Part shown: one piece after another, positions 8,996-37,269 of the stretch
Position numbering within the stretch: the first letter of the stretch is position 1
Layout: each line of letters opens with the position of its first letter
Assembly (NCBI GenBank): GCA_016209105.1
Contig: JACQWR010000013.1
Coordinates: 30,623-94,622, forward strand
Origin: Deltaproteobacteria bacterium
GTDB lineage: Bacteria > Desulfobacterota > Syntrophia > Syntrophales > JACQWR01
Direction: 5' to 3'
DNA: 64,000 nucleotides
Notes under the pieces: generated by a model
Told to the model about the DNA's origin: nothing
The model's database searches: none
Seen by the model: the letters and a program-made list of their open reading frames with translations, nothing else
Position numbers and translations under genes: made by a program

Positions 8996-9406
8996 ATGAA
9001 ATTGGATTGCATCAGGGTTCTGATGATAATCATGTTGACGACGATGATCGCCTTAACCGGCTCCGTGCTCATGGCGCAGCAGGACAAGATGATTTTAGAT
9101 TCTTCGAATGCCTCTCAGAATAAAGGACGGCCGGCAGTAACGTTTTTCCATAACCGGCATGTTGAAGCAGGATTGGACTGTAAGGCGTGTCATCATCTTT
9201 ATCAAAAGGGGAAAAATATTCTCGACGAAAGTCAACTGGTGGAGGGAAATCCGGCAATCCGTTGTTCTCAGTGCCATGCTGCACAGTTGCGTCTCAATGT
9301 GCAACAGGCCTTTCATAGCCAGTGCATCGGTTGCCACGTAACATACCAGAAGGAAAAGAAAAAAACAGTCCCCCGGTATTGTGGGGAATGCCATGCCCGG
9401 AAATAA
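8996..9406 (+). CDS. Periplasmic tetrahaem cytochrome c (cytochrome c3/class III-like)
   Basis: Four CxxCH motifs (CKACHH, CSQCH, CIGCH, CGECH). Hydrophobic signal peptide LMIIMLTTMIALTGSVLMAQQ, plus the c3-like VTFFHNRH. ATG 8996 sits 7 nt after AGGAG (8984-8988), so it is preferred over ATG 8990. Confidence 0.8.
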   Translation: MKLDCIRVLMIIMLTTMIALTGSVLMAQQDKMILDSSNASQNKGRPAVTFFHNRHVEAGLDCKACHHLYQKGKNILDESQLVEGNPAIRCSQCHAAQLRLNVQQAFHSQCIGCHVTYQKEKKKTVPRYCGECHARK

Positions 9407-9435
9407 ATTTCTCAACATTTACCTGGAGGGGAAAA

Positions 9436-10110
9436 ATGATCGTTGCGGAGAGAAAGCCTATTGATGAAATCAAGGAGATGGTGAAATCGTTCAAGAGAGT
9501 GTTGAATGTTGGTTGTGGAGGGTGTACTTCCATTTGTCATTCTGGTGGTCAAAAGGAAGTTGATCTCTTAAATGAAGAACTAAATAAAGCTTTTGAACTC
9601 GACCATATTCCACTCCAGATCGATAGCTTTACGATTGAGAGGCAATGCAATGCCGATTTTTATCTCCTGTTGGATGAGAAGATGCAATCCTATGACGCTG
9701 TCCTTTCGATGGCGTGCGGCGCCGGGGTCCAATTTCTCTCTGACCGAATTCCTGAAAAACCTGTCTTTCCGGCTTTAAACACTATTTTTGTCGGAGTGGA
9801 TCGTGATCTTGGATGGTTTGAGGAAAACTGCCGTTCCTGTGGAGAATGTGTTCTTGGAAAAACAGGAGGAATATGCCCGGTAACAAGATGTGCCAAGAGT
9901 CTGTTCAACGGACCCTGCGGAGGAACTGCTCATGAAGGTAAATGTGAAGTGAGCAAAGATACCCCCTGTGCCTGGTATGAGATTCATAAACGCTTAAAGC
10001 AACAAAACAGGTTGGAAAACATTCTCCTCATAACACCTGCACGAGAATGGCGAAATCAAACTCGGGGCACTCTGGTTCAGGAAGCGTATAAGGAACGATA
10101 TGCCAAATGA
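9436..10110 (+). CDS. metV: MetV, small Zn/FeS subunit of MetVF-type methylene-THF reductase (MTHFR C-terminal-like domain), copy 1
   Basis: Motifs VGCGGCTSICHSGG, MACGAGVQ, CRSCGECVL and CPVTRCAKSLFNGPCGG. The start was moved from ORF 9322 to ATG 9436, which follows GGAGGGG. The upstream extension overlaps the cytochrome gene. 224 aa against 222 aa for copy 2. Confidence 0.8.
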   Translation: MIVAERKPIDEIKEMVKSFKRVLNVGCGGCTSICHSGGQKEVDLLNEELNKAFELDHIPLQIDSFTIERQCNADFYLLLDEKMQSYDAVLSMACGAGVQFLSDRIPEKPVFPALNTIFVGVDRDLGWFEENCRSCGECVLGKTGGICPVTRCAKSLFNGPCGGTAHEGKCEVSKDTPCAWYEIHKRLKQQNRLENILLITPAREWRNQTRGTLVQEAYKERYAK

Positions 10111-10151
10111 ATAGAGTGGCGCAGAACGTAAGGGAAAAGGTCTGAGTAACG

Positions 10152-11714
10152 ATGTATCAATCCATTATTGAACTGGCGAATGACGGCATACTGGTCTTCA
10201 ATGACCGGCTGCAGGTGGAATATGCAAATCGCGCCATCTCGCAGATCACTGGGTATGACCATGCCAGAATAATGGGAATGAACATTGCCCGGCTCCTCGG
10301 CGACAAAAGCCGAGCGCTGCTGGAAGACATATTTTCCCATCCGGAAACGTACGGCGAAAAGACCTGCACGGAAATTCAGTTTAGCACCGCAGCCGGCAAT
10401 ATCAGATATGCGGAAATCTGCATTGCTCTTTCAATTCCTTCCGACGGCTCCGACAAAGCCAACGCCTATATCCGTGATATAACGGATCAGAAACGGATAG
10501 AGAATGAGCTCCGTGAGGCCAATGAATTTTTTCAGAATCTGATTTCCAGTTCCGTGGACGGGATCATAGCCGCCGATATGAAGGGAAATATCTTTATATT
10601 CAATCAAGCGGCGGAGCAGCTAACGGGTTATTCCGCGGACGAGGTTATCGGCAAAGTGCACATAACACAGCTCTATCCCGAGGGCGTAGCCAGTGATATC
10701 ATGAAGAAACTCCGCAGTTCCAACAATGGGGGTGTCGGTAAATTAAATCCCTCTCAGCTCAATCTGATCAGTAAAACCGGCGAGAAAATTCCCTTTCAGC
10801 TTTCCGCAACATTGATTTATGACGGCACCGGCAGTGAAATTGCAAGCGTGGGGATATTTACCGATTTACGGAAACGCCTCGACATGGAACGCAAGCTTCA
10901 GGAAACGCATATGCAACTCGTCAGTTCCGAGAAGCTCGCATCGTTAGGAAAGCTTGCTGCCGGCATTGCCCACGAGATTAACAATCCTCTCGGCGGGATA
11001 CTTATTTACGCGAGTCTCATGATAGAAGATATTCCCGACGATGACCCCAAACGGCAGGATTTGGTCCGTATCGTTCAGGAAGCGGGCCGTTGCAAGGACA
11101 TCGTGAAAAGTCTTCTTGAGTTTGCGCGCCAGAACGAACCGACGATGGAGCCGGTGGATATCAACCGCGCCATAACCGAAGGGTTATTTTTTCTGGAAAA
11201 CCAGGCTCTTTTTCATAATATCAAGATTGTGAAAAAACTATTGCCGTCACTTCCCTTTGCGCGCGGCAATGCGGGTCAGCTCAAGCAGGTCTTTATGAAT
11301 ATTATCGTCAATGCGGCGGAAGCCATGCACGGTAACGGCACCTTAACGATTTCCACCTCCTTTAATCAGGAACGCAAGCACATAGCCATTGAATTCACCG
11401 ATACCGGCGAAGGCATCCCCGAAGAAAACCTTACCCGGATTTTCGACCCATTTTTTACTACGAAGGAAATCGGCAAGGGAACGGGATTGGGGTTAAGCAC
11501 GTCTTATGGTATCATAGAAGCTCATGGAAGCAAGATAGAGGTGAGAAGCAAAGTGGGTGTCGGCAGTACCTTTGCCATTTTGCTCGCACCGTACCCCGAG
11601 ATACAGCCGATCATCGAAAATTCCTTAAACAATGTGCTCGGCACTCTGGGTAAGCATGACAGGTTTGAGGACGTTAAAGGACACCACGAGCAGACGCAAC
11701 ATCCACCCCTGTGA
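10152..11714 (+). CDS. Cytoplasmic PAS-PAS sensor histidine kinase (paralog 1)
   Basis: Two PAS-like segments, H-box AAGIAHEINNPLGG, N box NIIVNAAEAM, G boxes DTGEGI and GTGLGLS. No transmembrane segments. Confidence 0.85.
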   Translation: MYQSIIELANDGILVFNDRLQVEYANRAISQITGYDHARIMGMNIARLLGDKSRALLEDIFSHPETYGEKTCTEIQFSTAAGNIRYAEICIALSIPSDGSDKANAYIRDITDQKRIENELREANEFFQNLISSSVDGIIAADMKGNIFIFNQAAEQLTGYSADEVIGKVHITQLYPEGVASDIMKKLRSSNNGGVGKLNPSQLNLISKTGEKIPFQLSATLIYDGTGSEIASVGIFTDLRKRLDMERKLQETHMQLVSSEKLASLGKLAAGIAHEINNPLGGILIYASLMIEDIPDDDPKRQDLVRIVQEAGRCKDIVKSLLEFARQNEPTMEPVDINRAITEGLFFLENQALFHNIKIVKKLLPSLPFARGNAGQLKQVFMNIIVNAAEAMHGNGTLTISTSFNQERKHIAIEFTDTGEGIPEENLTRIFDPFFTTKEIGKGTGLGLSTSYGIIEAHGSKIEVRSKVGVGSTFAILLAPYPEIQPIIENSLNNVLGTLGKHDRFEDVKGHHEQTQHPPL

Positions 11715-23694: not shown

Positions 23695-24132
23695 ATGGCG
23701 GACAGTGCAGGGAACGGATTTGAGCCTGAGGTTATTGCAATCTGCTGTGAGCATTGAGCTTACAGCGCTGCGGACCTGGCAGGTTCGATGAGACTGAGTT
23801 ATCCCAGTAATGTGAAGGTGGTGAAAGTACCCTGCACCGGCCGTGTGGATATTTTGTTGATCTTGCACGCCTTTGAAAATGGGGTGGACGGCGTTTACCT
23901 GGCCGGATGCCTGGAGGGCGAGTGCCATTTTTTGAAGGGAAACCTGCGGGCAAAAAAGCGGGTGCAGTATGTGAAAGGTTTGCTGGAAGAGGTCGGCATA
24001 GGCGGTGAACGGGTGGAGATGTTTAACATGAGCGCATCCCAGGGTCAGCGGTTTGCACAGTGTGCGCAGGAAATGACGGAACGCGTGCGTTCGTTGGGAC
24101 CGTCGCCGGTAAAGGGAGGTTCAAAAAAATGA
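23695..24132 (+). CDS. mvhD: MvhD/FlpD-like protein, predicted selenoprotein (in-frame UGA at 23755-23757)
   Basis: RBS GGAGGA (23681-23686) lies 8 nt before ATG 23695. Read-through gives MADSAGNGFEPEVIAICCEH-U-AYSAADLAGSMRLSYPSNVKVVKVPCTGRVD. This aligns with paralog 1, FEPKILTFLCNWCAYAGADLAG...VMCSGRID, with U opposite the second Cys. The track ORF 23788..24132 is the in-frame continuation and would lack the Cys motif. Confidence 0.75.
23755..23757 (+). other. Putative selenocysteine (UGA) recoding site in mvhD copy 2
   Basis: The TGA is in frame between ATG 23695 and ATG 23788. It aligns with Cys of CNWCAY in the paralog at 17969. I could not confidently fold a SECIS hairpin by eye. Confidence 0.65.
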
Positions 24133-24797
24133 TCGTAGGTAATCGCAAGGAATTTCAGGAGATCGTGGGGATGCTGGGCTCCAACAGGCGGGTGCTTCTG
24201 TTGGGGTGCAATGAGTGCGTGACGGTTTGCGGCGTGGGCGGCGAGAAGGAAGTAGGGGTGCTCGCATCGGAATTGCGCATTCACTGGAAGACAGCCGGGG
24301 AGACCTTCGAGGTCAAAGAGCATACGCTGGAGCGGCAGTGTGATTACGAGTACATAGATCAGGTGCGCGGTTTTGTCGGCGATTATGACGTCATTTTATC
24401 GATGGCCTGCGGGGCTGGGGTTCAATATGTCGCGGAGGCCTATAAGACAAAACTGGTGATGCCGGCGGTGAATACGACCTTTCTGGGAGTCACCCTGGAG
24501 CAGGGGGTATGGAGTGAGCGCTGCCAGGGCTGCGGCGCCTGCATCCTCGATATGACGGGGGGAGTCTGTCCCATCGCACGCTGCGCGAAGAGTCTCATGA
24601 ACGGCCCCTGCGGCGGTTCGTCGGGAGGGAAGTGCGAGGTGGACAAGGAGGTGGATTGCGGCTGGCAGTTGATAATTGACCGTCTCACGGAGCTTGGACA
24701 GTTGGATCGTTACGAAGATATCATACCGGTAAAGGATTGGCGCAGCAGCCGCGAAGCAGGTCCGCGCAAGAGAATAAGGGAGGATTTGAGACTGTGA
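24129..24797 (+). CDS. metV: MetV small subunit of MetVF-type methylene-THF reductase, copy 2
   Basis: LGCNECVTVCGVGG, MACGAGVQ, CQGCGACIL and CPIARCAKSLMNGPCGG. ATG 24129 overlaps the mvhD stop (ATGA), so the ORF 24060 extension was rejected. Confidence 0.82.
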   Translation: MIVGNRKEFQEIVGMLGSNRRVLLLGCNECVTVCGVGGEKEVGVLASELRIHWKTAGETFEVKEHTLERQCDYEYIDQVRGFVGDYDVILSMACGAGVQYVAEAYKTKLVMPAVNTTFLGVTLEQGVWSERCQGCGACILDMTGGVCPIARCAKSLMNGPCGGSSGGKCEVDKEVDCGWQLIIDRLTELGQLDRYEDIIPVKDWRSSREAGPRKRIREDLRL

Positions 24798-25717
24798 AGA
24801 CGAATTCAAAAATAGAGAAGATATGGGACTCCGGTGGGTTCATCGTCACGTCGGAATGCGGCCCCCCGCGTGGGGCGGACGCTGAGATTGTTCGTAAAAA
24901 GGGAGAGTATTTACGGGGTGTGGTAGATGGCGTGAACGTCACGGACAATCAGACCTCGGTGGTGCGCATGTCTTCCCTTTCCGCCTGTGCGATATTGAAG
25001 GGTATGGGCCTGGAGCCCATTTTACAGATGGTCTGCCGCGACCGGAACCGGATCGCCTTGCAGAGCGACATTTTGGGCGCCGCCGCCCTGGGGATAAACA
25101 ACATGCTCTGTTTATCCGGCGATCATCAAAAGTTCGGCGATCATCCCCAGGGCAAGAATGTCTATGATATTGATTCCATGCAGTTGATACAGACGGTCCG
25201 TCAGATGCGTGATGAGGGAAAATTTCTGGGCGGCGACGAGATAAAGGGAAAGCCGGTGATCTTTATCGGCGCGGCGGAAAATCCCTTTGCCGATCCCTTC
25301 GAGATACGGGCGGCCAGGCTGGGAAAAAAGGTAAAGTCGGGTTGCCAGTTTATTCAGACGCAATGCATCTATAATTTAGAGAAGTTCAGCCGCTGGATGC
25401 AGATGGTCTGCGACCGCGGCTTGCATGAGAAGTGCGCCATTCTGGCCGGGGTAACGCCGATGAAATCGGCGGGCATGGCGAATTATATGAAAAAAAATGT
25501 TCCCGGAATGGATGTCCCTGACGCCCTGATTGAACGAATGAAAGGGACGCCCAAAGAGAAGCAGGCGGAAGAGGGGATCAATATCTGTGTAGAGTCCATA
25601 CAGCAGTTGAGGGAAATGCCGGGTGTGCGGGGCATTCACATCATGGCGATAGAATGGGAAGAGAAGGTAGCGGAAATCGTCAAAGCTGCCGGATTATTTC
25701 CGAGACCGGAAGTGTAA
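24794..25717 (+). CDS. metF: Methylenetetrahydrofolate reductase MetF, copy 2
   Basis: TSECGPP, NVTDNQTSVVRM, CRDRNR, LCLSGDH and FIQTQCIYN. GTG 24794 overlaps the metV stop (GTGA) and follows GGGAGGA. 307 aa, like copy 1. Confidence 0.87.
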   Translation: MKTNSKIEKIWDSGGFIVTSECGPPRGADAEIVRKKGEYLRGVVDGVNVTDNQTSVVRMSSLSACAILKGMGLEPILQMVCRDRNRIALQSDILGAAALGINNMLCLSGDHQKFGDHPQGKNVYDIDSMQLIQTVRQMRDEGKFLGGDEIKGKPVIFIGAAENPFADPFEIRAARLGKKVKSGCQFIQTQCIYNLEKFSRWMQMVCDRGLHEKCAILAGVTPMKSAGMANYMKKNVPGMDVPDALIERMKGTPKEKQAEEGINICVESIQQLREMPGVRGIHIMAIEWEEKVAEIVKAAGLFPRPEV

Positions 25718-25795
25718 CAACAAAATGCCGCAGTGAGAATGCAGAATACAGAATAGAAAGTGTTTCTTACGTCCTTTTGTGAAAAGGAGCTGCCG

Positions 25796-27232
25796 ATGAA
25801 TTTAGCAATAAGTTCCGATCTGGCCAGTCAGATCCGCAGGCAGTGCGGTGAAAACGTCTTCTTGTGTTATCAGTGCCAGAAGTGCTCCTCCGGGTGTCCT
25901 GTCGCCGAATATTTCGACCTTGCCCCCAACCAGCTTATGCGTGCCCTTCAACTGGGACAGAAAGACATGGTTCTGAAGTCAAGGACCTTATGGCTTTGCG
26001 CCATGTGCGAGACCTGCGCCGTTCGGTGTCCTCATGACATAAATATCACCAGGATCATGGATGTCCTCAAGATCATGGCCCAGCAGGAAGGACTCTCTTC
26101 GCCCCTTCCCTCCGCGGTGCTGTTGAATCAAGCTGCCATGAGAGGCATCCGCCTCTTCGGGCGGATGTATGAAGCAGGCCTCATGGGTGAAATCTATTTC
26201 CGTCAGATGCTCTCAGGCACGCTCGACTTCCGCCGGCTCCTTCGAATAGATCTTCCCTTGGCGTCAAAAATGATCCGGAAAAGGAAACTGAAGCTCCTTC
26301 CGTCCTTCGGGAAGACCGCCTTATCGAAGAAAAACACGAAACAAGGAGAAGGGATCGCCTATTACCCCGGCTGCAGCCTCCACGGCACATCGAGTGAATA
26401 CGATCTTTCCACCCGCGCGGTACTTTCCCGGCTGGGCGTTACGCTTCAGGAACCACAGAGCTGGAACTGCTGCGGAAGCACCCCCGCCCACTCAACGGAT
26501 CACTATCTTTCCGTACTGCTTCCCCTGAGGACCCTGCAGACCATTGATAAGGCGGGATTCGACACCCTAACCACACCGTGTCCTTCCTGTTTTATTCGCC
26601 TGAGAACAGCGCAGAGAGAATGTCGGGATGAAGGGATCAAACAGCGGCTTCAAGCCGAAGTAGGAGAACTCCCCTCAGCGGATTTGAAGATTGAACATCT
26701 CCTGCAGACCGTCTCGGAAAGGATCGGATACGAGAAGGTAAGGGAAGCTGTCGTTCGTCCCCTCAGGGGATTAAAGGTAGTCTGCTACTATGGCTGCATC
26801 ATCACCAGGCCTCCGAAAATTACCGGGGTTCAGGATTATGAATATCCTACCGCCATGGAACGGATAATGAAAACAGTGGGCGCTACTCCTCTTGACTGGT
26901 CGTACAAAACCCGCTGTTGCGGTGCAACCCTCAGTATTTCAAAACCGGCAATCGCTCTTAACCTTACCGGGAAAATCCTCCAAAACGCAAAAAACGTGGG
27001 CGCCGACGCCATTGTTGTAGCCTGTCCGCTGTGCCAAATAAACCTCGATGTCCGTCAGCAACAGATCAGCGAAGAGGGGGGAAAGCCGTTTTCTATCCCT
27101 ATTATGTATTTTACCCAGTTGATGGGACTGGCTTTCGACATGAGTGCTTCAGAACTGGGACTTGGAAAACATTTTGTCGATGCCGGGACCATAGTCGCTC
27201 AAAGCGCACCTGCTCAATTCTCATGCCCTTAA
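25796..27232 (+). CDS. Fused HdrC-HdrB-like protein
   Basis: The N-terminal part has CYQCQKCSSGCPV and CAMCETCAVRCPHDIN. The C-terminal part has YYPGCSLHG, WNCCGSTPAH and KTRCCGATL. ATG 25796 follows AAAGGAG. Confidence 0.85.
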   Translation: MNLAISSDLASQIRRQCGENVFLCYQCQKCSSGCPVAEYFDLAPNQLMRALQLGQKDMVLKSRTLWLCAMCETCAVRCPHDINITRIMDVLKIMAQQEGLSSPLPSAVLLNQAAMRGIRLFGRMYEAGLMGEIYFRQMLSGTLDFRRLLRIDLPLASKMIRKRKLKLLPSFGKTALSKKNTKQGEGIAYYPGCSLHGTSSEYDLSTRAVLSRLGVTLQEPQSWNCCGSTPAHSTDHYLSVLLPLRTLQTIDKAGFDTLTTPCPSCFIRLRTAQRECRDEGIKQRLQAEVGELPSADLKIEHLLQTVSERIGYEKVREAVVRPLRGLKVVCYYGCIITRPPKITGVQDYEYPTAMERIMKTVGATPLDWSYKTRCCGATLSISKPAIALNLTGKILQNAKNVGADAIVVACPLCQINLDVRQQQISEEGGKPFSIPIMYFTQLMGLAFDMSASELGLGKHFVDAGTIVAQSAPAQFSCP

Positions 27233-27244
27233 GGAGGCATTCCT

Positions 27245-29185
27245 ATGGCACGGGAGCGAGACCGTACAGCGTTGGAACGCAAGATCGTTGCCCTTGAGAA
27301 ACGCTTGGCGAAATATGAGCAGGAAAAAGGCGGCGATGACATGCGGGGGATCGCCGAACGCCTTGAAAAAATAGTCGAGATGGGAGACGACGGCATTATC
27401 GTTTTCGATGAAGATTCCCGGATCGATTTTGCCAATCAGATGGCTTCCGATATTCTCGGCGTTTACAAAGGGAGCATAATCGGCAGCGAATTTTATCGGC
27501 TTATCGGAAAAAGCGACCAGGAGTTTCTGAAGGACATGGTGACACGCGGCAAGGGCGTCGGCCAGAAGTTCTGTACGGAAATGGCAATCAAAACACCCCG
27601 CGGAGACCTTATACAAACGGAAGTGTGCATAGCCCCGTCGCATACGGATGATGGAAAGAGTGTAACGTACGCCTATATCAGGGACATAACGGAGAGAAAA
27701 AAATATGAAAAGGATTTAAAAGAGTCGGAAGAGAAATATCGCAATCTTTTTGAACGGGTGCGGCACGGTATTTACGGAAGCAGCAAAGAAGGACGATTCA
27801 TAGACTGCAACCCAACCCTCCTGGAGATGCTGGGTTATGAAACCAGGGAAGAATTCCTGAAGATAGACATAGTCCATGACCTTTACACAAAACCGGAAGA
27901 CCGGGTTGCTTTTCAAAAGCTCATAGAAAAACAAGGATTTGTAAAAGATCTGGAGGTGGAATTTAAAAAGAAAAATAAGGAAACGATTACCGTGCTCCTG
28001 ACAGCCCATGTCAAGATGGACGACCGCAGGTCGATTACCGGCTATGAAGGCCTCATCATCGATATTTCCGACAGAAAACGGATGGAAAAGGAGCTGCGGG
28101 AGGCGAACGAATTTTTGACCAGACTGATTGAAAGCTCTGTGGACGGCATCATTGTGGCGGATACGGAGGGGAAGGTGCTCATCTTCAACAGGGGCGCCGA
28201 AAATATGCTTGGTTACAAAGCGGAAGAGGTGGTGGGGAAAATGAACATCCGCGGCATCTACCCGACCGGTGTGGCCAGGGAGGTTATGCAGAAGCTCAGG
28301 AGCAATGACTTCGGCGGTGTGGGAAAGCTTACCTCGTTTCCCCTTCTTGTCCGCAGAAAAGACGGCGAGCTTATCGAAGGCGACCTTTCCGCTACGCTCA
28401 TTTATGATGAAATGGGGAACGAGCTGGTGAGTGTCGGGATATTCAAGGATTTGCGGGAAAGGCTGGGAATTGAGCGGGAACTCAGGAAAACGCAGGAAGC
28501 GCTTCTTCAGGCAGAGAAGCTCGCCGCCATGGGAAGACTTACCTCGCAGATCGCACACGAGTTGAATAATCCGATCTACGGAATTATGAATACCCTGGAG
28601 TTGCTCAAATCCGAGGTTCCGCTGGAGAGCAAACGGAGACGCATATTGGAGTTGTCTCTTTCCGAAACGGTCAGACTTTCCGAAATGCTCCGCAGCATGC
28701 TCAGTTTTTCCAAGCCGGAAGAGGAGAAAAGAACGCCGACAAAAATTAACGAGCTCATTGAGGGAATCCTGCTCGTTATGGAAAAGCAGATGCGGGAAGA
28801 GAATATCCGGGTAACAACGGCTTTTGCCAAAAACGTTCCCGAAGTCATGGCTTCCACCAATCAAATCAGGCAGGTCATGCTCAACATGATCAAGAATGCA
28901 AAGGAAAGCATGCCTACGGGGGGAGTCCTGAACATCAGGACGATGCATAACACCGGGAAAATCCTTATTATTATCCGTGATACGGGGGCTGGAATACCCG
29001 AGGATATCCGCGATAAGATATTTGAAGCTTTCTTCACCACCAAGCAAAAAGTAAAGGGCGTGGGATTGGGATTGTCCGTCTGTTACGGCATCATCAAAGA
29101 CCACGGTGGCGAAATCAGTGTAGAGAGCGAAGTCGGCAAGGGCACAACCTTTATCATCAGTTTGCCTGTTCAGGGGAAAACGTAG
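27245..29185 (+). CDS. Cytoplasmic multi-PAS sensor histidine kinase (paralog 2)
   Basis: Three PAS-like segments. H-box TSQIAHELNNPIYG, then NMIKNAKESM, DTGAGIP and GVGLGLS. The PAS-HK core is clearly paralogous to 10152..11714 (RMEKELREANEFLTRLIESSVDGIIVAD vs RIENELREANEFFQNLISSSVDGIIAAD). Confidence 0.85.
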   Translation: MARERDRTALERKIVALEKRLAKYEQEKGGDDMRGIAERLEKIVEMGDDGIIVFDEDSRIDFANQMASDILGVYKGSIIGSEFYRLIGKSDQEFLKDMVTRGKGVGQKFCTEMAIKTPRGDLIQTEVCIAPSHTDDGKSVTYAYIRDITERKKYEKDLKESEEKYRNLFERVRHGIYGSSKEGRFIDCNPTLLEMLGYETREEFLKIDIVHDLYTKPEDRVAFQKLIEKQGFVKDLEVEFKKKNKETITVLLTAHVKMDDRRSITGYEGLIIDISDRKRMEKELREANEFLTRLIESSVDGIIVADTEGKVLIFNRGAENMLGYKAEEVVGKMNIRGIYPTGVAREVMQKLRSNDFGGVGKLTSFPLLVRRKDGELIEGDLSATLIYDEMGNELVSVGIFKDLRERLGIERELRKTQEALLQAEKLAAMGRLTSQIAHELNNPIYGIMNTLELLKSEVPLESKRRRILELSLSETVRLSEMLRSMLSFSKPEEEKRTPTKINELIEGILLVMEKQMREENIRVTTAFAKNVPEVMASTNQIRQVMLNMIKNAKESMPTGGVLNIRTMHNTGKILIIIRDTGAGIPEDIRDKIFEAFFTTKQKVKGVGLGLSVCYGIIKDHGGEISVESEVGKGTTFIISLPVQGKT

Positions 29186-29262
29186 GTTTCTTCCCTGACG
29201 GTAATATAAATGTAATGTCATGGGGAAAAGGTGACGTAAACAATTTCAATGAGGATAACACC

Positions 29263-29835
29263 ATGGAAATGTTAACGGTATCCCAGGCAAGCAAGTACTG
29301 TTCTGTTCCAACGAAAACGATACTGAGCTGGATTGAATCGGGCGATCTTTCCGCCCAGAAAACCGTCGGCGGCCATCGCCGCATCAGGAAGGAAGACCTT
29401 GACACCGTTCTGGTGAAGAAGGGCATCCCGCTCCCTGGTAATGCAAAAAAAGAGGCGAGAAAAAAAATACTGGTGGTTGATGACGATAGAATTATCGTGG
29501 AGACGATCGTTCAAGCGCTGGAGGAAGATGAATACGGATACGAGATGATTTCGGCATCCGACGGTTTCGAGGCGGGTCTGCAGGTCAGTCATTTCAAACC
29601 CGATCTCCTTATCCTTGACATCATGATGCCCGACATAAACGGATACGAGGTCTGCAGAAGAATCAAAGAGAATGCCGCGATAAAGGATATTAAGATTATT
29701 GTGTTATCGGCCTATCTCAATGAAGAGGCATTTGATCAGATGAAGACGTATGGGGCGGACGCCTGTTTTTCCAAACCCCTGCCGCTCGCCCAGTTGAAGC
29801 ATGAGGTTGCAAAGCTTTTAGGACTGAAAACGTGA
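29263..29835 (+). CDS. Response regulator with N-terminal excisionase/MerR-type HTH and C-terminal receiver domain
   Basis: The HTH is LTVSQASKYCSVPTKTILSWIESGDLSAQKTVGGHRRIRKEDL. The receiver is KILVVDDD...LLILDIMMPDINGYEVCRRIK...KIIVLSA. ATG 29263 follows GAGGA (29251-29255). Confidence 0.75.
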   Translation: MEMLTVSQASKYCSVPTKTILSWIESGDLSAQKTVGGHRRIRKEDLDTVLVKKGIPLPGNAKKEARKKILVVDDDRIIVETIVQALEEDEYGYEMISASDGFEAGLQVSHFKPDLLILDIMMPDINGYEVCRRIKENAAIKDIKIIVLSAYLNEEAFDQMKTYGADACFSKPLPLAQLKHEVAKLLGLKT

Positions 29836-29842
29836 GGAGATT

Positions 29843-30724
29843 ATGCGGTTAGCAGAAAATCTGAAAAAGAAAAAGTTTGTCGTTACCTCGGAACTTCAGC
29901 CTCCTATCGGCATGGGAGCGGGTGAGTTCGTCCAAAATGTGGAGCGGGCACGGGGAAGGGTGGATGCCTTTACCGTGCCCGAACTGAAAATTGAAGGGCT
30001 GGTTGCCGATACGATGGGGACCTGCAAGATACTGAGGGAGCATCAATTCGATCCGATCCTGCAAACCGCCTGCCGCGACAGGAACAGGGTGGAACTCCAA
30101 GAGTACCTTCTCAAGGCATCGGAGGCGGGCATAGAAAATATCCTTACCTTTACGGAGGACTACCGTATCACCGGTGACAGCCTGCAGGAAATTATGTTCT
30201 TTCATGTGGATTCGGGCAAGCTTTTTTCCGTTGTGGAGAATATGAGCCGGGGACAGGATATTTCCGGGAAGGAATTGCCCGCCAAGGCCACTTTCTGCAT
30301 TGGTTCCGGCATTGATTCCCGATGGGGCAGACAAGTGCCGGATATGCAACTCAAGGAAATGGAATCGCTGGCGGGTTTTGGCGCCCAGTATTTCCTCTCC
30401 ACGCCGGTGTTTGATCTCGATTCCTTCAATCAATTCATGAAACGCCTGGCGCCTCTCCGGGTTCCGGTCATCGCCGAAATCATACTCGTGAGAACCGCCG
30501 AGATGGGGATCTTTCTTAACAAACACATGAGGAGTGGGATCGTCCCCCCGCATATCATTGAGAAATTAGCCAAGGCTCCGGACAAGGAAAAAGCGAGCAT
30601 CGAAATCGTCAGCGATCTGGTGAAAGGGCTGAAGGATCTCTGTCAGGGGGTGCACCTCATCCCCTTCGGCGCGGAGGACCGGATTGCAAAGTACCTTGAG
30701 GCTGCAAAACTTTCATCCCTGTAA
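29843..30724 (+). CDS. Divergent MetF/MTHFR-family protein (copy 3, motifs altered)
   Basis: Retains TSELQPP and CRDRNR. NITDNQ is replaced by TVPELK, LCLSGDH by LTFTEDY, and FIQTQCIYD by YFLSTPVFD. RBS GAGGAG. Lies immediately upstream of HdrL-type gene 2. Confidence 0.7.
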   Translation: MRLAENLKKKKFVVTSELQPPIGMGAGEFVQNVERARGRVDAFTVPELKIEGLVADTMGTCKILREHQFDPILQTACRDRNRVELQEYLLKASEAGIENILTFTEDYRITGDSLQEIMFFHVDSGKLFSVVENMSRGQDISGKELPAKATFCIGSGIDSRWGRQVPDMQLKEMESLAGFGAQYFLSTPVFDLDSFNQFMKRLAPLRVPVIAEIILVRTAEMGIFLNKHMRSGIVPPHIIEKLAKAPDKEKASIEIVSDLVKGLKDLCQGVHLIPFGAEDRIAKYLEAAKLSSL

Positions 30725-30747: not shown

Positions 30748-33700
30748 ATGAATTTGCGGGAAAACCAAAAAATAGGAGCCGCCCTGGTTATCGGTGGGGG
30801 GATAGCGGGCGTTCAGGCGTCTCTGGACCTGGCCAATTCGGGCATCAAGGTTTATCTTCTCGAATCTTCGCCTGCCATTGGCGGTCGGATGGCTCAGTTG
30901 GACAAGACGTTTCCTACGAACGATTGCGCCATGTGCATTGTATCGCCGAAGTTGGTAGAGGCGGGTCGTCATCTGAACATCGAGATTCTCACCAATTCCA
31001 AGTTAGTATCATTATCGGGCATTCCGGGTTCATTTCGGGCGCGTATTCGTCATTCGCCGCGGTACATTGATGTGGGGAAGTGCACGGGTTGTGCCGATTG
31101 CGCGGAGGTTTGTCCGGTTGTGTTGTCGAACGAGTTCAATGAGGGGTTGGACGAGCGGAGGGCCATTTATCGTCCTTACCCCCAGGCGGTTCCGAATTCA
31201 TTTTTAGTAACGAAGCGGGGGACAAGTCCCTGCAAGGCGGCCTGTCCTGCGGAGACGAGCGCACAGGGGTATGTTGCCTTGATTGGCGCCGGTCGGTATG
31301 AGGAGGCATTGGAGGTAATTCGGGAGTACAATCCCTTTCCTGCCTCGGTGGGGAGGGTATGCACGCATCCGTGTGAGGAGGAGTGCAGTCGGGGGAAGGT
31401 TGATTCTCCCGTGGGGATTTGCGCCTTGAAGAGATTTGTTGCGGACTGGGTATATGAGCACGGCGGTTCATCGGAGAAGGCGATAGGGATTGGTGACGGG
31501 ATTACGGGGAGGCCCGAGGCGAAGGTAGCGGTGGTCGGTTCCGGTCCTGCTGGCATGAGTTGTGCTCATCATCTGGTTCGGATGGGATATGGGGTTACGG
31601 TTTATGAGTCATTGCCGGTAGCGGGGGGGATGATGCGGGTGGGGATACCTGCGTACCGGTTGCCGCGGGAGGTATTGCAGCGGGAGATAGACGCCATTGT
31701 AGCCGAGGGTGTGGAGTTGAGGTTAAACACTCCGGTTCGGGACATAAACGGGTTATTTGAGGAAGGCTACCGCGCGGTATTTCTGGCGATGGGCGCTCAT
31801 GAGCCTCAGCGCCTGGGGATTGAGGGCGAGGATGCCAGGGGGGTATATCATGGCGTTCCTTTTTTGCAGTCGGTGAGCTTGGGTGACGGCGGCGGGGAGT
31901 TGCCCCGGACGGGTGAGCGGGTAGTAGTGATTGGCGGCGGCAACACGGCGATTGACTCGGCGCGCACGGCACTTCGTCTGGGGGCGAGGGAGGTGATGCT
32001 GGTTTATCGTCGTTCGCGGGAGGAGATGCCGGCGAACGACTGGGAGGTAGAAGAGGCGGAGCGTGAGGGCGTCAAGCTTGAGTTGTTGACGGCGCCGGTG
32101 TCGGTGGAGACGCGGGAGGGCAGGATTGTCGGCGTTCGGTGTTTGCGTATGGAGTTGGGGGAGGCGGACGCGAGCGGGCGGAGGCGTCCGGTTCCGGTTC
32201 CCGGTTCTGAGTTTGTGATTGCGGCGGACACGATGATTGCGGCGGTTGCTCAGGCGCCGGAGATATCTTTTTTGGATGAGTCGCACGGTTTGGAGATAAG
32301 TTCGCGGGGGACATTTGTCGTTGATCAAAAGACTCTGGCCACGAAGCGTGCGGGGATATTTGCCGGGGGCGATGTTCACCGGGGCCCGGGGATATTGATT
32401 GAGGCCATAGCGGACGGTCGGCGGGGCGCGCTTTCGATAGACCGGTATTTACGGGGGGTTGATCTCCTCACCGCTCGTGAGGAGGTTCCCCTGCCGGTAG
32501 TCGCGCTTACGGACGATGAGATAGACCATATCATTGCGGCGGGGAAGGTGGATTTATCGCCGCGGGTGACGGCACCGACCTCGCCAGTTTCGGAGCGTAT
32601 TCGTGATTTTCGCGAGGTTGAGCTGTCGTTGACGGAGGCCGAGGCAAGGCGAGAGGCTGCTCGTTGTCTCGAATGCGGGATCTGTTCGGAGTGTCATTTA
32701 TGCGTGCGGGTGTGCAAGGCGGGTGCGATAGATCACCAGGATGCGGCGCGGGAGGAAGAGCTTTCGGTGGGATCGGTGATAGCGGCGCCGGGGTACTCGT
32801 TATATGACCCGGGGTTGTCTCCGGAGCTGGGATATGGTCGTTATGCCAATGTGGTCACGAGCATGGAGTTTGAGCGGATGCTTTCCGCCTCCGGCCCGTT
32901 CGGGGGACACGTGACCCGTCCCTCGGATCACCGGGAGCCGAAGAAGATCGCTTTTCTCCAGTGCGTCGGCTCCCGCGACAAGGACCATGATTACTGTAGC
33001 TCCGTATGCTGCATGTACGCCACAAAGGAAGCTGTGCTTGCCATGGAGCACATACCGGGTGTGGAGTGCATAATATTTCAGATGGACATGCGTGCCTTCA
33101 GCAAGGGGTTTGACGCCTATTACGAGAGAGGGAAGGAAAAAGGCGTACGCTATATTCCCTGCAGGATTTCCGCTCTGGAGGAGGACCCCCGGACAAAGGA
33201 AATTCTTATTCGCTACCGCAATGGAAGCGAAGATCCCTCCATTCGTGAGGAACGGGTTGATATGGCGATACTGAGTATCGGCATGTCGCCGCCTTCCCGG
33301 ATCGGGGAATTTGCGGAGATCGCAGGCATTGAACTCAACGCCCACCGGTTTTGCTCGACCCGTGACTTTTATCCCCTCGAAACAAGCCGTCCCGGTGTTT
33401 ATGTGTGCGGTACTTTTGCTGAACCAAAGGACATCCCGGACACCGTCATCCAGGCAAGCGGCGCGGCGGCAAAAGCCCTTGCCCTGCTGGGGGAATCCCG
33501 CGGAACCCTGATTCGCAAAAAAGACTATCCTCCCGAGCAGGAATGTCCTGCCGGTGAAGAGCCGCGGATCGGCGTATTTGTTTGCAGTTGCGGTTCAAAT
33601 ATTGCGGGAACGGTAGCGGTAAAAGATGTGGTGAACTATGTGGGCGCTCTTCCCGGCGTCGTCCATGTGGAAAACACAACCTATACCTGTTCGGCCGATT

Positions 33701-35253
33701 CGCTGGTTCTGATCCAGAAAAGGATGCGGGAGTTGAACTTGAACCGGCTGGTGGTCGCTTCCTGCTCGCCGCGCACCCATGAACCGCTTTTCCGGGAAAC
33801 GATCCGGGAGGTTGGCATCAACCCTTACCTTTTCGAGATGGCAAATATCCGCGATCAGTGCTCCTGGGTGCATATGGGCAGAAATGAAGAGGCTACGGAA
33901 AAGGCAAAACACCTCACCGGGATGGCTGTTGCCTGCGCGTCCAATCTGGAGCCCCTCCACCGCACGGAGCGGAGTCTGATCAACAAGTGCCTTGTGGTAG
34001 GGGGCGGTTTGGCCGGAATGACGAGCGCAGTAAATCTGGCGGATCAGGGCTTCTTCGTTTATCTGCTCGAACGGGAAAAAGAACTTGGCGGTGCGCTCAG
34101 GCATATTCATTTCAGCGCGGAAGGAGGCGATCCACAGCTTTTCTTGACGGATTTGATCAACCGCGTTGAAACCCATCCGCTCATAGAGGTCCTGCCCGGT
34201 TACCAGGTGGCGGACCATTCGGGAGGAGTGGGAAACTTTCAGACGAAAGTTGCCGAGGTAAACGGTCCCCGCCAGATGGTCATCGAACATGGAACCACGA
34301 TCATTGCCACCGGCGGTAGAGAGTACCGCGGAAGGAGTTCCCGCCTGAATGACGACAAACAAGTCATGACCCAAATGGACTTGGAGGCGAAAATCGCCGG
34401 CCAAGATCAAACCGTTGCCGAAGCGAAATCGGTGGTGATGATACAGTGCGCAGGCCCCTGGGACGATGATCCGACGATTCCCTTTTATTGCAGCCGCATT
34501 TGCTGCACACTGGCGCTCAAGAATGCCTTGAAGCTGAAGGAATTGAATCCGGAGCTTTCCCTTGTCATTTTATACAAAGATATGAGAACCTATGGATTCA
34601 AAGAAAGCATCTACACCCGGGCCAGAGAGAAGGGCATACTGTTCGTCCGTTTTGACGACATGCATAAACCAAAAGTCACGTCTTCAGACGGCAGAATTTC
34701 AGTCGAGGTACTGGAGCCTATGCTCCGCCTGCCGCTGATTCTGACGCCGGATATTCTCGTGCTTTCCCAAGCTATCGTCCCCCAGGAGGACAGCAAAGAA
34801 TTGGCCAATATCTTTAAATTCCCTCGCAGCGCCGAGGGCTTCTTTCTGGAAGCGCACATGAAGCTCCGGCCCGTGGATTTTGCCGCCGACGGCCTTTATC
34901 TCTGTGGTATGGCACATTATCCGAAAACGATAAATGAAAGCATTGCCCAAGCCCAAGCCGCCGCAGCCAGATCTGCCACCGTCCTTTCCCGTGATTCGCT
35001 TCTCGTCGGAGGGGTTGTGGCCGTTGTTTCCGGTGAGCGTTGCGCCGCCTGTTTGACCTGTGTTCGCCTGTGTCCTTACGGAGTTCCCGTAATAAATGCC
35101 CAGGGAGAAGCGGAGATTGACGTGGGGCTGTGCAAGGGATGCGGCACCTGCGTCGCGGAGTGTCCCGCTCGTGCCATTGATTTGATGCATTTTCGCTTCA
35201 GTCAGCTTGAAGCAAAAGTGGGGGCATTGGCGGCAGGTACCGGGGGAGGGTAG
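30748..35253 (+). CDS. Giant HdrA-class flavoprotein with NfnB/GltD-like insert (HdrL-type), copy 2
   Basis: 1501 aa with the same architecture as 13449..17927. The N-terminal ~745 aa are nearly identical to copy 1. The C-terminal end (CAACLTCVRLCPYGVPVINAQGEAEID..CKGCGTCVAECPARAIDLMHFR) resembles the hdrA gene at 18742 instead. Confidence 0.85.
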   Translation: MNLRENQKIGAALVIGGGIAGVQASLDLANSGIKVYLLESSPAIGGRMAQLDKTFPTNDCAMCIVSPKLVEAGRHLNIEILTNSKLVSLSGIPGSFRARIRHSPRYIDVGKCTGCADCAEVCPVVLSNEFNEGLDERRAIYRPYPQAVPNSFLVTKRGTSPCKAACPAETSAQGYVALIGAGRYEEALEVIREYNPFPASVGRVCTHPCEEECSRGKVDSPVGICALKRFVADWVYEHGGSSEKAIGIGDGITGRPEAKVAVVGSGPAGMSCAHHLVRMGYGVTVYESLPVAGGMMRVGIPAYRLPREVLQREIDAIVAEGVELRLNTPVRDINGLFEEGYRAVFLAMGAHEPQRLGIEGEDARGVYHGVPFLQSVSLGDGGGELPRTGERVVVIGGGNTAIDSARTALRLGAREVMLVYRRSREEMPANDWEVEEAEREGVKLELLTAPVSVETREGRIVGVRCLRMELGEADASGRRRPVPVPGSEFVIAADTMIAAVAQAPEISFLDESHGLEISSRGTFVVDQKTLATKRAGIFAGGDVHRGPGILIEAIADGRRGALSIDRYLRGVDLLTAREEVPLPVVALTDDEIDHIIAAGKVDLSPRVTAPTSPVSERIRDFREVELSLTEAEARREAARCLECGICSECHLCVRVCKAGAIDHQDAAREEELSVGSVIAAPGYSLYDPGLSPELGYGRYANVVTSMEFERMLSASGPFGGHVTRPSDHREPKKIAFLQCVGSRDKDHDYCSSVCCMYATKEAVLAMEHIPGVECIIFQMDMRAFSKGFDAYYERGKEKGVRYIPCRISALEEDPRTKEILIRYRNGSEDPSIREERVDMAILSIGMSPPSRIGEFAEIAGIELNAHRFCSTRDFYPLETSRPGVYVCGTFAEPKDIPDTVIQASGAAAKALALLGESRGTLIRKKDYPPEQECPAGEEPRIGVFVCSCGSNIAGTVAVKDVVNYVGALPGVVHVENTTYTCSADSLVLIQKRMRELNLNRLVVASCSPRTHEPLFRETIREVGINPYLFEMANIRDQCSWVHMGRNEEATEKAKHLTGMAVACASNLEPLHRTERSLINKCLVVGGGLAGMTSAVNLADQGFFVYLLEREKELGGALRHIHFSAEGGDPQLFLTDLINRVETHPLIEVLPGYQVADHSGGVGNFQTKVAEVNGPRQMVIEHGTTIIATGGREYRGRSSRLNDDKQVMTQMDLEAKIAGQDQTVAEAKSVVMIQCAGPWDDDPTIPFYCSRICCTLALKNALKLKELNPELSLVILYKDMRTYGFKESIYTRAREKGILFVRFDDMHKPKVTSSDGRISVEVLEPMLRLPLILTPDILVLSQAIVPQEDSKELANIFKFPRSAEGFFLEAHMKLRPVDFAADGLYLCGMAHYPKTINESIAQAQAAAARSATVLSRDSLLVGGVVAVVSGERCAACLTCVRLCPYGVPVINAQGEAEIDVGLCKGCGTCVAECPARAIDLMHFRFSQLEAKVGALAAGTGGG
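30780..33040 (+). repeat. Dispersed repeat, copy B (5' ~2.2 kb of HdrL-type gene 2)
   Basis: See copy A at 13480-15720. It is a direct repeat about 17.3 kb away. Confidence 0.75.
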
Positions 35254-35312: not shown

Positions 35313-35699
35313 ATGGCAAAAAAGATTTTGGTGGTTGACGATGATCCGGATCTTGTGGAAGCGACAACAATGATTTTAAAATCAAAAAATTATGACGTTA
35401 TTGCCGCATATGGCGGCGTCGAAGGACTTGCGAAGGCAAAATCAGAAAAACCGAACCTCATCGTCCTGGACGTCATGATGCCCGATAAAGACGGGTATAG
35501 GGTTTGCAGGGAGATGAAGGCCGATCCTGTTCTCAGCGAGATCCCGATCTTGCTGCTGACGGCGGTGGTATCTCACATCTCCACCACCCGTTACACCCAC
35601 CAGATGGGGATGGAGACCGAGGCCGATGATTACATGGACAAGCCGGTTGAACCCGCAGAGCTCGTAAAGCGTATTGAAGCTCTTCTTTCCAGGGAGTAG
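35313..35699 (+). CDS. Single-domain response regulator (CheY-like receiver)
   Basis: KILVVDDDPD, LIVLDVMMPDKDGY, PILLLTA and DDYMDKP. RBS GGAGGA. Confidence 0.85.
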   Translation: MAKKILVVDDDPDLVEATTMILKSKNYDVIAAYGGVEGLAKAKSEKPNLIVLDVMMPDKDGYRVCREMKADPVLSEIPILLLTAVVSHISTTRYTHQMGMETEADDYMDKPVEPAELVKRIEALLSRE

Positions 35700-35760
35700 A
35701 CCCTAACAGCATGGGGACAAGATTGCGCTTGTCTGCGCTTTGCCTCCTGAAGGAGGAGTG

Positions 35761-37269
35761 ATGCCTGAGCAGGTAAAAATACTGGTTATTGATGACGAGC
35801 AGATCATGCGGGATGGGTGCATCCGCATCCTGTGTAAAAAAGGCTGTTCCGTGGTTCCGGCAGAAAACGGAGCTGACGGCCTGAAAGAGCTTGAAAAGTC
35901 ACCGGAGGCGTTCGACATTATCCTGCTTGACCTGATGATGCCCGGGATGAGCGGCATGGAAGTCCTGGAAAAAATCCGGGTTCTGGATGACTCGCTGCTC
36001 GTCATCGTCATTACCGGTTATGCCACGGTGGAATCGGCCGTCGAGGCGATGAAAAAAGGGGCCTATGATTTTATCGCCAAACCCTTTGCTCCCGATCAAC
36101 TGCGCATTGTCGTAAAAAGAGCCCTGGAGCGGAGGATGCTGCAGAAGGAGGCAGAATTCCTGCGCAGTGAACGGGAGCGCTCCCTCCGGGACGTGGCAAC
36201 GGAAAAATCCCGGGTCAAAACGATCATCAATTGCATGGGTGACGGAATACTCGTCTGCGACCGGGACAGCTGCATCGTCCTTACGAACCCCGCAGCCAGC
36301 CGTATGCTTGAAATTCCCGAATCACGTCTGCTGGGGAACCATGTTTCGCGATCCAACCTGCATCGGGATTTATCCGAAACAATTGAAGGCAGTCTCAGGA
36401 CCGAAGGCAGCGCCTACTCCTCCATATCGCAGGAATTCAGCATAGGCGAATCAGGGAAAATGTTTCTCCGCGCCCATACGGCACCGGTGCGTAATGATCG
36501 GGGCGAGATCATGGGGGCCGTCACTGTTTTGCAGGATATCAGCTACCTGAAAGAACTGGATAAGATGAAGTCGGAGTTTATCGCCATGGTGGCACATGAG
36601 CTACGGGCGCCCATCGCCACGGTAGAACAGCAATTGACGGTTATCTTGAGCAGCATGGCTGGTGAGCTGAACAATACGCAGGGACAGCTTATTGCCCGTG
36701 CCAAGGAGAGGACGCGGGGCGTGCTGACGCTGATTAAAGATCTGCTTGATCTTTCCAAGATCGAGGCAGGAAAAATGGTGCAGTACAAGGAACCCCTGTC
36801 GCTTGCCGAAGTGATCACCCGCGTGGCGGAAATGATGAAAACGGATGCCGAGGTAAAAAACATCCGCATTGATTTTTTGTTTCCGGAGAATATTCCCACA
36901 ATTCATGCCGACCGGAACAGCATGGAAGGCATCTTTACCAACCTTATTTCAAATGCCGTCAAATATACGCCCGACGGGGGAAAGGTAACGATCGCTCTCA
37001 ACGATCATAGCGGTTTTGTGAAGGTTTCCGTTGCCGATAACGGTATCGGCATCAAGAGCGAGGATATTCCTCGGATATTCGATAGATTTTACCGGGTAAA
37101 ATCATCGGAAACACGCCAGATCGTCGGGACCGGTTTGGGGCTCTCCATCGTAAAAAGCATCGTGGAAGCGCATCTCGGGACGATTTCCGTGGAAAGCGCG
37201 GAGGGGCAGGGAACAACCTTCAACGTCTTGTTGCCGAAGGCGGTAGGCTTGGCAAGCTGCGGGGAATAA
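35761..37269 (+). CDS. Hybrid receiver-PAS-histidine kinase
   Basis: Receiver: ILVIDDE, IILLDLMMPGMSG, VIVITGY, AYDFIAKP. Followed by a PAS segment and H-box MVAHELRAPI. Then NLISNAVKYTP, DNGIGI and GTGLGLS. ATG 35761 follows AGGAGG. Confidence 0.85.
   Translation: MPEQVKILVIDDEQIMRDGCIRILCKKGCSVVPAENGADGLKELEKSPEAFDIILLDLMMPGMSGMEVLEKIRVLDDSLLVIVITGYATVESAVEAMKKGAYDFIAKPFAPDQLRIVVKRALERRMLQKEAEFLRSERERSLRDVATEKSRVKTIINCMGDGILVCDRDSCIVLTNPAASRMLEIPESRLLGNHVSRSNLHRDLSETIEGSLRTEGSAYSSISQEFSIGESGKMFLRAHTAPVRNDRGEIMGAVTVLQDISYLKELDKMKSEFIAMVAHELRAPIATVEQQLTVILSSMAGELNNTQGQLIARAKERTRGVLTLIKDLLDLSKIEAGKMVQYKEPLSLAEVITRVAEMMKTDAEVKNIRIDFLFPENIPTIHADRNSMEGIFTNLISNAVKYTPDGGKVTIALNDHSGFVKVSVADNGIGIKSEDIPRIFDRFYRVKSSETRQIVGTGLGLSIVKSIVEAHLGTISVESAEGQGTTFNVLLPKAVGLASCGE

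Follow-up and report, generated by a model that had tools for sequence, protein, structure and literature searches.

A response regulator-linked paralog of methylenetetrahydrofolate reductase in Syntrophales and other bacteria, a candidate flavin-less folate co-sensor

The 64,000-nucleotide stretch of DNA analyzed here (hereafter, the window; GenBank assembly GCA_016209105.1, contig JACQWR010000013.1, positions 30,623 to 94,622 of the forward strand) comes from a deltaproteobacterium of the order Syntrophales and encodes three members of the methylenetetrahydrofolate reductase (MTHFR) superfamily, MetF1, MetF2 and MetF3, whose genes are the only PF02219 genes in this genome (2.7 Mb, 92% complete). 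The third of these proteins, MetF3 (293 aa; 29843..30724, plus strand), represents an uncharacterised family that shares the MTHFR fold, is encoded directly downstream of a distinct response regulator in all surveyed loci that reach far enough upstream and, judging by its residue pattern, appears to have dispensed with the canonical flavin site. Our tentatively favored interpretation is that MetF3 lacks flavin, binds folate and serves as a co-sensor in the two-component control of the expression of metVF/hdr or metVF/nuo-fdh genes.

MetF3 is a member of the MTHFR fold superfamily (PF02219) by both sequence and predicted structure, in agreement with the earlier note, made from the DNA sequence alone, that had described the open reading frame 29843-30724 as encoding an MTHFR-fold protein. 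The Pfam match (59.8 bits at a cut-off of 24) covers 282 of the 287 profile positions, compared to the scores of 135-137 bits for MetF1 (6791-7720) and MetF2 (24737-25717). When the three proteins are aligned, the identity is 60% between MetF1 and MetF2 and 25% between MetF3 and MetF1; the TSELQPP and ACRDRNR motifs are found in MetF3, and three blocks of MetF1 and MetF2 are replaced as the note had described, namely NITDNQTxVVRM by TVPELKIEGLVAD, LCLSGDH by LTFTEDY and FIQTQCIY by YFLSTPVF. The comparison of the MetF3 family with canonical MetF using hhalign yields a probability of 100. The AlphaFold2 (AF2) model built from the family alignment is a confident MTHFR-like (beta-alpha)8 barrel (pLDDT 87, pTM 0.88), and the best Protein Data Bank (PDB) matches of this model in a Foldseek search are all MTHFRs (TM-scores 0.65-0.73, 15-18% identity), including the FAD-dependent MetF of Escherichia coli (PDB 1ZP3/1ZP4; Foldseek probability 1.0, TM-score about 0.65). 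A PDB search with the single MetF3 sequence retrieved nothing useful, and the MTHFR structures were reached only with the family profile. The scores of MetF3 against the NCBIfam models TIGR00676 (27.6, cut-off 293.7) and PRK08645 (137, cut-off 453) are low, but MetF1 and MetF2 also fall under these cut-offs (75 and 224 bits, respectively, for MetF2), which makes this a weak test. The same fold is shared with the MetFV-type MetF, exemplified by MetFV of Clostridium ljungdahlii and MetFV-HdrABC-MvhD of Moorella thermoacetica (PMC8515935).

In E. coli MTHFR, Glu28, Asp120, Gln183 and Phe223 are the four essential residues (PMC11868366; PMC11094777): Glu28 is the catalytic acid, Asp120 binds N3/NH2 of the pterin, and Phe223 stacks on the p-aminobenzoate ring (PMC11094777). 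The active site was mapped on an alignment of 41 MetF3 family members, to which canonical proteins were added with hhalign and MAFFT L-INS-i. The equivalents of Glu28 (E17), Asp120 (D106) and His273 (H271) are present in all 41 sequences, and the Gln that occupies the position of E. coli His88 in the MetFV type is retained in 38 of them (Q74). In the region of Phe223, a Phe (F224) is found in 40 of the 41 sequences one column earlier, with Leu or Ile in the Phe223 column itself, where the loop alignment is uncertain by one residue in either direction. Gln183, the loss of which in E. coli MetF increases the Km more than 250-fold and which is kept even in Mfr and Mer (PMC11094777), is opposite Thr in 40 sequences (T187 in the window protein) and Ser in one. 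The loss of the folate-binding Gln, which the note had pointed out, is thus borne out: hhalign and MAFFT L-INS-i agree on its equivalence when checked against E. coli MetF (b3941).

The positions that contact the flavin have changed more extensively. Among the 19 FAD contacts listed for E. coli MetF (PMC11271092), only Asp120 is identical in MetF3; a few further positions match the MetFV-type consensus instead (Gln88, Thr118, Phe131 and Gly150). Gly119 is replaced by Glu in 36 of the 41 MetF3 sequences (E105), and Ala132, which is Asp in the MetFV type, by His in all of them. In the nucleotide-phosphate-binding region (E. coli MetF residues 165-172; PMC8765232), Asn168 and Lys170 are both Glu in 41 of 41 sequences, Arg171 is Glu, Ala or Ser, and Lys172 is Leu or Met (L176 in the window protein), so that the basic helix of MetF becomes E169/E172/E174/(E175)/L176; segment 163-173 bears a net charge of about +1.5 for 81 representatives with the canonical pattern, and of about -3.3 for MetF3. 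Finally, Gly210, which is invariant in canonical MetF and absent from the contact list, is Glu in all MetF3 sequences (E212). At E. coli positions 28, 119, 120, 172, 183 and 210, the 81 canonical representatives, as well as MetF2, bear the signature E-G-D-K-Q-G, in place of which the MetF3 members have E-E-D-L/M-T-E, and VPELK takes the place of the TDNQ loop of the MetFV type. The invariant polar set particular to MetF3 consists of Y107, R108, E116, H121, D123, K126, E172, E174 and E212. Taken at face value, the alignments indicate that MetF3 retains two of the three pterin-contacting residues and has lost most of the canonical flavin contacts. This pattern suggests that the usual FMN/FAD site, along with any nucleotide-phosphate site in that place, is gone, and that a pterin-type pocket is kept in a modified form. 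The note's reading of MetF3 as a non-canonical or non-catalytic protein is therefore reasonable, although its overall interpretation is only partly supported (see below).

An enzyme of the MTHFR fold that functions without flavin is known, the mycobacterial Mfr (PDB 8BGR; bioRxiv 10.1101/2022.11.18.516900; PMC11094777), which, like MetF3, has no canonical flavin site and keeps the catalytic Glu. With this precedent, MetF3 could in principle still be a methylene-tetrahydropterin reductase or oxidase that has a different redox partner or one-carbon (C1) carrier: its cofactor might be bound in a novel manner, its hydride might come from a donor that is not FMN/FAD, or its pterin might be modified. 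The invariance of the catalytic Glu and the pterin-binding Asp, along with the retention of His273 and of Gln at the His88 position, fits such an activity, and the invariant polar residues from Y107 to E212 could make a new cofactor site. Continued catalysis of this kind nevertheless appears improbable, considering the Thr at the Gln183 position and the acidic phosphate-binding helix, which argues against FMN, FAD, NAD(P)H or F420 at the usual place, and considering also that no MetV-type iron-sulfur donor is encoded next to MetF3 and that a canonical MetF/MetV pair is already encoded in the same cluster. A role as an Mfr-like NADH enzyme, specifically, was rejected: Mfr, with its conserved Glu9, has kept the Gln (Gln177) and binds NADH in the place of FAD, whereas MetF3 lacks the Gln and has the acidic helix. 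The Foldseek match of the MetF3 model to Mfr is weaker than those to MTHFRs (TM-score 0.58), and PDB sequence searches detected no sequence similarity between the two proteins, which match at the level of the fold only.

The MetF3 family is large and evolves under strong constraint. A word-indexed search retrieved more than 2,400 homologs; the best 120 of these are 73-89% identical to MetF3 and 290-293 aa long, every one of them is labelled 'methylenetetrahydrofolate reductase', and the named sources among them are Thermodesulfobacteriota, Syntrophaceae and 'Deltaproteobacteria' metagenome-assembled genomes (MAGs). All the MetF3 relatives come from MAGs. Estimated against the four closest orthologs, dN/dS is 0.06-0.08. 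The 41-sequence family alignment, which extends down to 50% identity to the window protein, contains 51 invariant positions, including the signature block FTEDYRITGDSLQEIMFFHVDSGKL as well as YFLTTPVFD, PVIAEV and CQGVH. The invariant residues are concentrated at the C-terminal ends of the beta strands, that is, on the ligand face of the barrel. The active-site face is where the family is most conserved, which speaks for a specific ligand site and against a passive scaffold. The low Pfam score and the loss of canonical MTHFR residues might be taken as signs of a decaying, functionless duplicate or an annotation artefact. Such an explanation is hardly credible for a frame that is intact and of nearly constant length in over 100 close homologs, a confident structural model and numerous invariant positions, and the pseudogene interpretation is ruled out by dN/dS and conservation; the number of homologs and the monophyly of the clade likewise show that MetF3 is not a decaying copy. 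A single MetF3 match is found in two pieces, in a Desulfobacteraceae MAG (L063, 10001-11192), where residues 1-185 and 153-290 lie about 220 nt apart; this split could reflect an insertion, a duplication or a frameshift.

A phylogenetic tree was constructed from 173 rows that comprised members of the family, sequences representing the 50%-identity clusters of an exhaustive HMMER scan, MetF1, MetF2 and one MetV-linked MetF, with E. coli MetF as the outgroup. In this tree, MetF3 forms a single clade of 44 rows with a long stem (SH-aLRT 97), embedded in a 67-row clade (SH-aLRT 97) that also contains looser MetF-like proteins, here denoted group B; the 67-row clade itself falls within the radiation of the MetFV-type MetF. 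Distant members of MetF3 had been suspected in a 280-290-bit group of family f42, but these proved to be canonical MetV-paired MetF. The Spirochaetota MetF3 sequences are nested among those of Thermodesulfobacteriota, which implies lateral transfer. In addition to this phylogenetic position, MetF3 resembles the MetFV type in the makeup of the gene clusters, with MetV, Hdr and MvhD, and in keeping the equivalents of Glu28, Asp120, Gln(88) and His273; it differs in the absence of an adjacent MetV, the constant presence of a response regulator upstream, the charge reversal of the flavin-phosphate helix and the altered signatures described above. No family with the features of MetF3 is included in either the four-type (types 1-4; PMC11868366) or the five-group classification of MTHFRs, the latter with four MetFV branches (PMC8515935). 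Literature searches on HdrL with MetF, on MetV/HdrA phylogeny and on MTHFR with a response regulator yielded no description of this subfamily, and no characterised MTHFR variant among these sources fits MetF3.

The most constant feature of MetF3 is its genomic association with one family of regulators. In the window, the upstream gene (29215..29835, plus strand) encodes a response regulator in which an HTH_17 (excisionase/MerR-like) domain at the N-terminus is followed by a receiver domain at the C-terminus (Pfam HTH_17, residues 19-65; Response_reg, residues 85-198); the orthologs of this protein align only from residue 8-19 on, and its true start is probably near 29263. The stop codon of the regulator, TGA (29833-29835), overlaps the GGAG Shine-Dalgarno sequence of MetF3 and is located 7 nt ahead of its ATG (junction TGAGGAGATTATG, 29833..29845, plus strand), which indicates translational coupling of the two genes. 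The regulator gene is preceded by that of a soluble histidine kinase, HK2 (27245..29185, plus strand; three PAS domains, HisKA and HATPase_c in Pfam searches), which is presumed to be the cognate kinase. Gene neighborhoods were compared across 69 loci, 65 of which came from a pattern search (in Syntrophales, Desulfobacterales-type lineages and Spirochaetota) and four were taken independently from a genome sample. The HTH_17-receiver regulator is directly upstream of MetF3, on the same strand, in all 63 loci with at least 700 nt of upstream sequence; an HK2-type PAS kinase is found up to 9 kb upstream in 34 of the 43 loci with enough sequence. The regulator is linked more tightly to MetF3 than to the kinase, and its linkage to MetF3 persists through every rearrangement. 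Of the dedicated kinase/regulator pair that the note had placed upstream of MetF3, the regulator, mentioned there only briefly, is the invariant partner.

The two genes are also inherited together. In a sample of 401 genomes drawn evenly from the phylum, the scores of the MetF3 profile are bimodal, with 38 genomes from at least 14 GTDB families reaching 350 bits or more, and regulator orthologs (at least 58% identity, with the next tier at 44% or less) are found in 39 genomes. The two sets are identical except for one genome (L082), in which 333 nt separate the regulator from the contig end, so that MetF3 is cut short and visible for its first 92 codons; when this fragment is counted, MetF3 and the regulator co-occur in 39 of the 39 carrier genomes, and the genes are adjacent every time. 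Of the 13 sampled genomes that belong to the same GTDB order as the window, none has MetF3 or an ortholog of the regulator, in contrast to at least 14 other families. This patchy distribution suggests lateral transfer of the MetF3-regulator module, as into Spirochaetota.

The genes downstream of MetF3 are much more variable. The downstream gene in the window is that of HdrL2 (1501 aa; 30748..35253, plus strand), a protein with HdrA-like and GltD/NAD(P)H modules identified with Pfam and NCBIfam, and the 23-nt gap between the two genes is as the note had given it. Among 60 loci, MetF3 is followed by HdrL in 33, by a formate dehydrogenase (FDH)/NuoG-like gene (and then NuoE, a NuoF-GltD fusion, MetV and MetF) in 16, by HdrC in two, and by HdrCB, HdrA or Fhs in one each; in five loci, the downstream gene is unrelated or missing, and the remaining locus is that with the split MetF3. 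Hence the pairing with HdrL, described in the note, stands for the window and is not general: it is lineage-specific, whereas the pairing with the regulator is universal among the surveyed loci. MetF3 as an obligate partner of HdrL was rejected for this reason, and a scaffold for the giant flavoprotein, as envisaged in the note, is unlikely as a general function, given that HdrL is not a constant neighbor and that the ligand face is the most conserved part of the protein. In agreement with the note, no metV adjoins MetF3 in the window, where the nearest such gene, metV2 (24060-24797), is paired with metF2; the same holds for all 69 loci, in which the partner of MetV is, without exception, a canonical MetF distinct from MetF3.

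The co-sensor interpretation is suggested by the combination of the regulator linkage, the dismantled flavin site, the partly kept pterin site, the conservation of the ligand face and the existence of signalling-linked relatives (see below). Under this interpretation, MetF3 would be a neofunctionalised MTHFR-fold protein that no longer holds FMN or FAD in the canonical manner but still presents a conserved pterin-type pocket, and would form, together with the upstream HTH_17-receiver regulator and the PAS kinase, a three-part regulatory module in which MetF3 is the metabolite-sensing arm. MetF3 would bind a reduced folate, methyl- or methylene-tetrahydrofolate, and so report the C1 load of the methyl branch; it would then alter the activity of the regulator or the kinase and, through these, set how strongly the adjacent metV-metF genes are expressed together with those of their electron-transfer partners, that is, HdrL/HdrCB/MvhD in the window and the set of FDH/NuoG-like protein, NuoE and NuoF-GltD in other lineages. 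Enzyme-like co-sensors are familiar from other systems, in particular glutamine synthetase, which acts with the MerR-type regulators TnrA/GlnR in Bacillus subtilis, and NreA, which acts with NreBC in Staphylococcus. The logic proposed for MetF3 is the same, with an enzyme-fold protein reporting a metabolite to a regulator or kinase, and the gene of NreA likewise belongs to one operon with those of the kinase and the regulator; these proteins are not homologous to MetF3. We know of no description of a TIM-barrel folate enzyme as a transcription co-sensor.

Several relatives of MetF3 and its regulator are also associated with signalling. The group B proteins, with 35-40% identity to MetF3 and as much as 49% to representatives of the intermediate clade, are encoded directly beside PAS kinases in all five loci examined; in four of these, the order is MetV1, group B, histidine kinase (757-806 aa), followed by HdrC-HdrB where the sequence reaches. 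The catalytic signatures of group B are eroded heterogeneously (e.g., EGDKNG, EGEETG and EGEQPG). Two genomes (L080 and L081) have, in the same layout, a second MetF3 copy without the HTH regulator, 63-66% identical, which precedes a 668-aa protein whose N-terminus is receiver-like and which further contains an MTHFR and a MetV (DUF5981) domain (8620-9495 and 6388-8394, minus strand, in L080). Other genomes contain HTH_17-receiver regulators that are paralogous (about 40% identity) and stand at the head of conserved gene clusters, where they are succeeded by a CheD-HDOD fusion, CheR and a kinase (L083 6217-9257, L085 3742-6710 and L088 3834-6654, with a large kinase in L088), that is, by signalling accessories, not by metabolic targets. 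Extending the co-sensor idea, MetF3 and group B might together represent a hitherto unrecognised class of cytoplasmic receptors for small molecules that descend from a TIM-barrel folate enzyme, a possibility that we consider with still greater reserve. In such a class, which would span Thermodesulfobacteriota and Spirochaetota, the methyl- or methylene-tetrahydrofolate signal would be passed to a response regulator by MetF3 and to PAS histidine kinases by group B, allowing the two-component systems to gauge the folate pool's C1 charge and to set the level or direction of the methyl branch in the Wood-Ljungdahl pathway. Two natural fusions that involve canonical-type MetF were observed among the proteins from the HMMER scan: P0130 (423 aa) has a C-terminal extension that appears receiver-like by eye, lacks the phospho-acceptor Asp and has no Pfam match, and P0177 (607 aa) is a MetF-FolD fusion (THF_DHG_CYH domains).

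Several observations weigh against the co-sensor interpretation and in part favor its main rival, under which MetF3 is a structural, non-flavin subunit of a MetVF-based reductase complex and the first gene of a regulator-controlled operon, for instance as a partner (pseudo-MetF) of the catalytic MetF, or as the subunit through which the complex docks to HdrL or the FDH/NuoEF module. In the FDH/NuoG-type loci, MetF3 often overlaps the downstream structural gene, as in the ATGA overlap with the FDH/NuoG-like molybdopterin protein at position 10876 of L065, or ends 6-26 nt before it; given such close downstream spacing, which in the window is 23 nt, MetF3 may be produced in step with the enzyme complex. 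MetV and canonical MetF are present in all 11 loci with long flanks on both sides, MTHFRs are usually oligomers (PMC3156243), and MetF3 is conserved like the catalytic subunits (76% identity between L005 and the window, compared to 79% for MetF2 and 77% for MetV2). Furthermore, two-component genes sit among metVF/hdr genes even where MetF3 is missing, as is the case of HK1 in cluster 1 of the window and in its relatives; with signalling genes so common in this context, adjacency to them is weaker evidence here than it usually would be. Scans for promoters and terminators around MetF3 in the window and two relatives yielded only chance-level counts. Ligand binding by itself would also not need an invariant catalytic Glu.

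A subunit role nonetheless seems somewhat less likely in view of the lack of a constant structural neighbor. MetF3 closes the cluster, with unrelated genes following, in L030 and in Spirochaetota, where the order is GltD-like, MetV, MetF, histidine kinase, response regulator and MetF3. The MetF3-HdrL spacers are 2 to 386 nt long, and palindromic repeats often fill them; conservation peaks on the ligand face of the barrel, not on an outer surface; and perfect co-inheritance with a single regulator family across at least 14 GTDB families, while the enzyme partners are swapped, would not be expected of an ordinary first structural gene. The co-sensor role thus remains the interpretation that we tentatively prefer.

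Alignment of the long MetF3-HdrL spacers revealed no shared operator, only lineage-specific palindromic repeats, which could serve as mRNA-stability or attenuation elements between the two genes. The repeats are REP/MITE-like (L007 2659-2859, L009 1693-1938, L024 10873-11022, L046 2506-2892, L018 3398-3558 and L019 10882-11036), and either AT-rich, of the AAACTC..CCTAAA / TTTAGAGTTTAGG type, or GC-rich, of the CCCCTCCCC...GGGGAGGG type. The FDH/NuoG-type clusters (L065 10001-17177; also L048, L053, L055 and L061), in which NuoE and a 1087-aa NuoF-GltD fusion are followed by MetV and MetF, are reminiscent of the 'X-type' MTHFR, as yet untested, of Yi et al. 2021 (PMC8515935).

The window cluster that includes MetF3 consists of genes on the plus strand and includes MetV2 (24060..24797; Pfam DUF5981, 126 bits), the partner of MetF2 (24737..25717), which is a canonical MetFV-type MTHFR (Pfam MTHFR, 137 bits), and an HdrC-HdrB fusion protein (25760..27232) with two CCG domains and Fer4. 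Beyond HdrL2, the cluster ends, as identified with Pfam, with a stand-alone receiver protein, RR2 (35313..35699), and a hybrid REC-PAS histidine kinase, HK3 (35740..37269). The order MetV2-MetF2-HdrCB-HK2-RR-MetF3-HdrL2 is a circular permutation of the order that is commoner in Syntrophales, HK-RR-MetF3-HdrL-MvhD-MetV-MetF-HdrCB. In the relatives of cluster 1 (L074 6328-11349 and L076 7277-11324), MetV1 is followed by a group B protein of 290-304 aa, an approximately 800-aa PAS kinase, HdrC and HdrB, whereas in the window (9322-11714), the 520-aa HK1 directly follows MetV1 with no group B gene in between. A deletion may have removed the group B MetF-like gene along with the 5' part of the kinase gene from cluster 1 of the window.

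The thermodynamic hinge that separates acetogenesis from acetyl-CoA oxidation is the conversion between methylene- and methyl-tetrahydrofolate, and the control and electron partners of this step in anaerobes are an open problem of Wood-Ljungdahl bioenergetics. MetF3, present in about a tenth of the sampled genomes of the phylum and everywhere annotated 'methylenetetrahydrofolate reductase', is, judging by its sequence, probably not such an enzyme, and its inclusion as a third MTHFR in metabolic reconstructions is probably an error. If MetF3 is instead a flavin-less subunit, the subunit model of the HdrL- and NuoEF-linked MetVF complexes would change. If it is a folate-sensing partner of the regulator, it would provide the first handle on the regulation of this pathway and a new case of an enzyme fold recruited to signalling.

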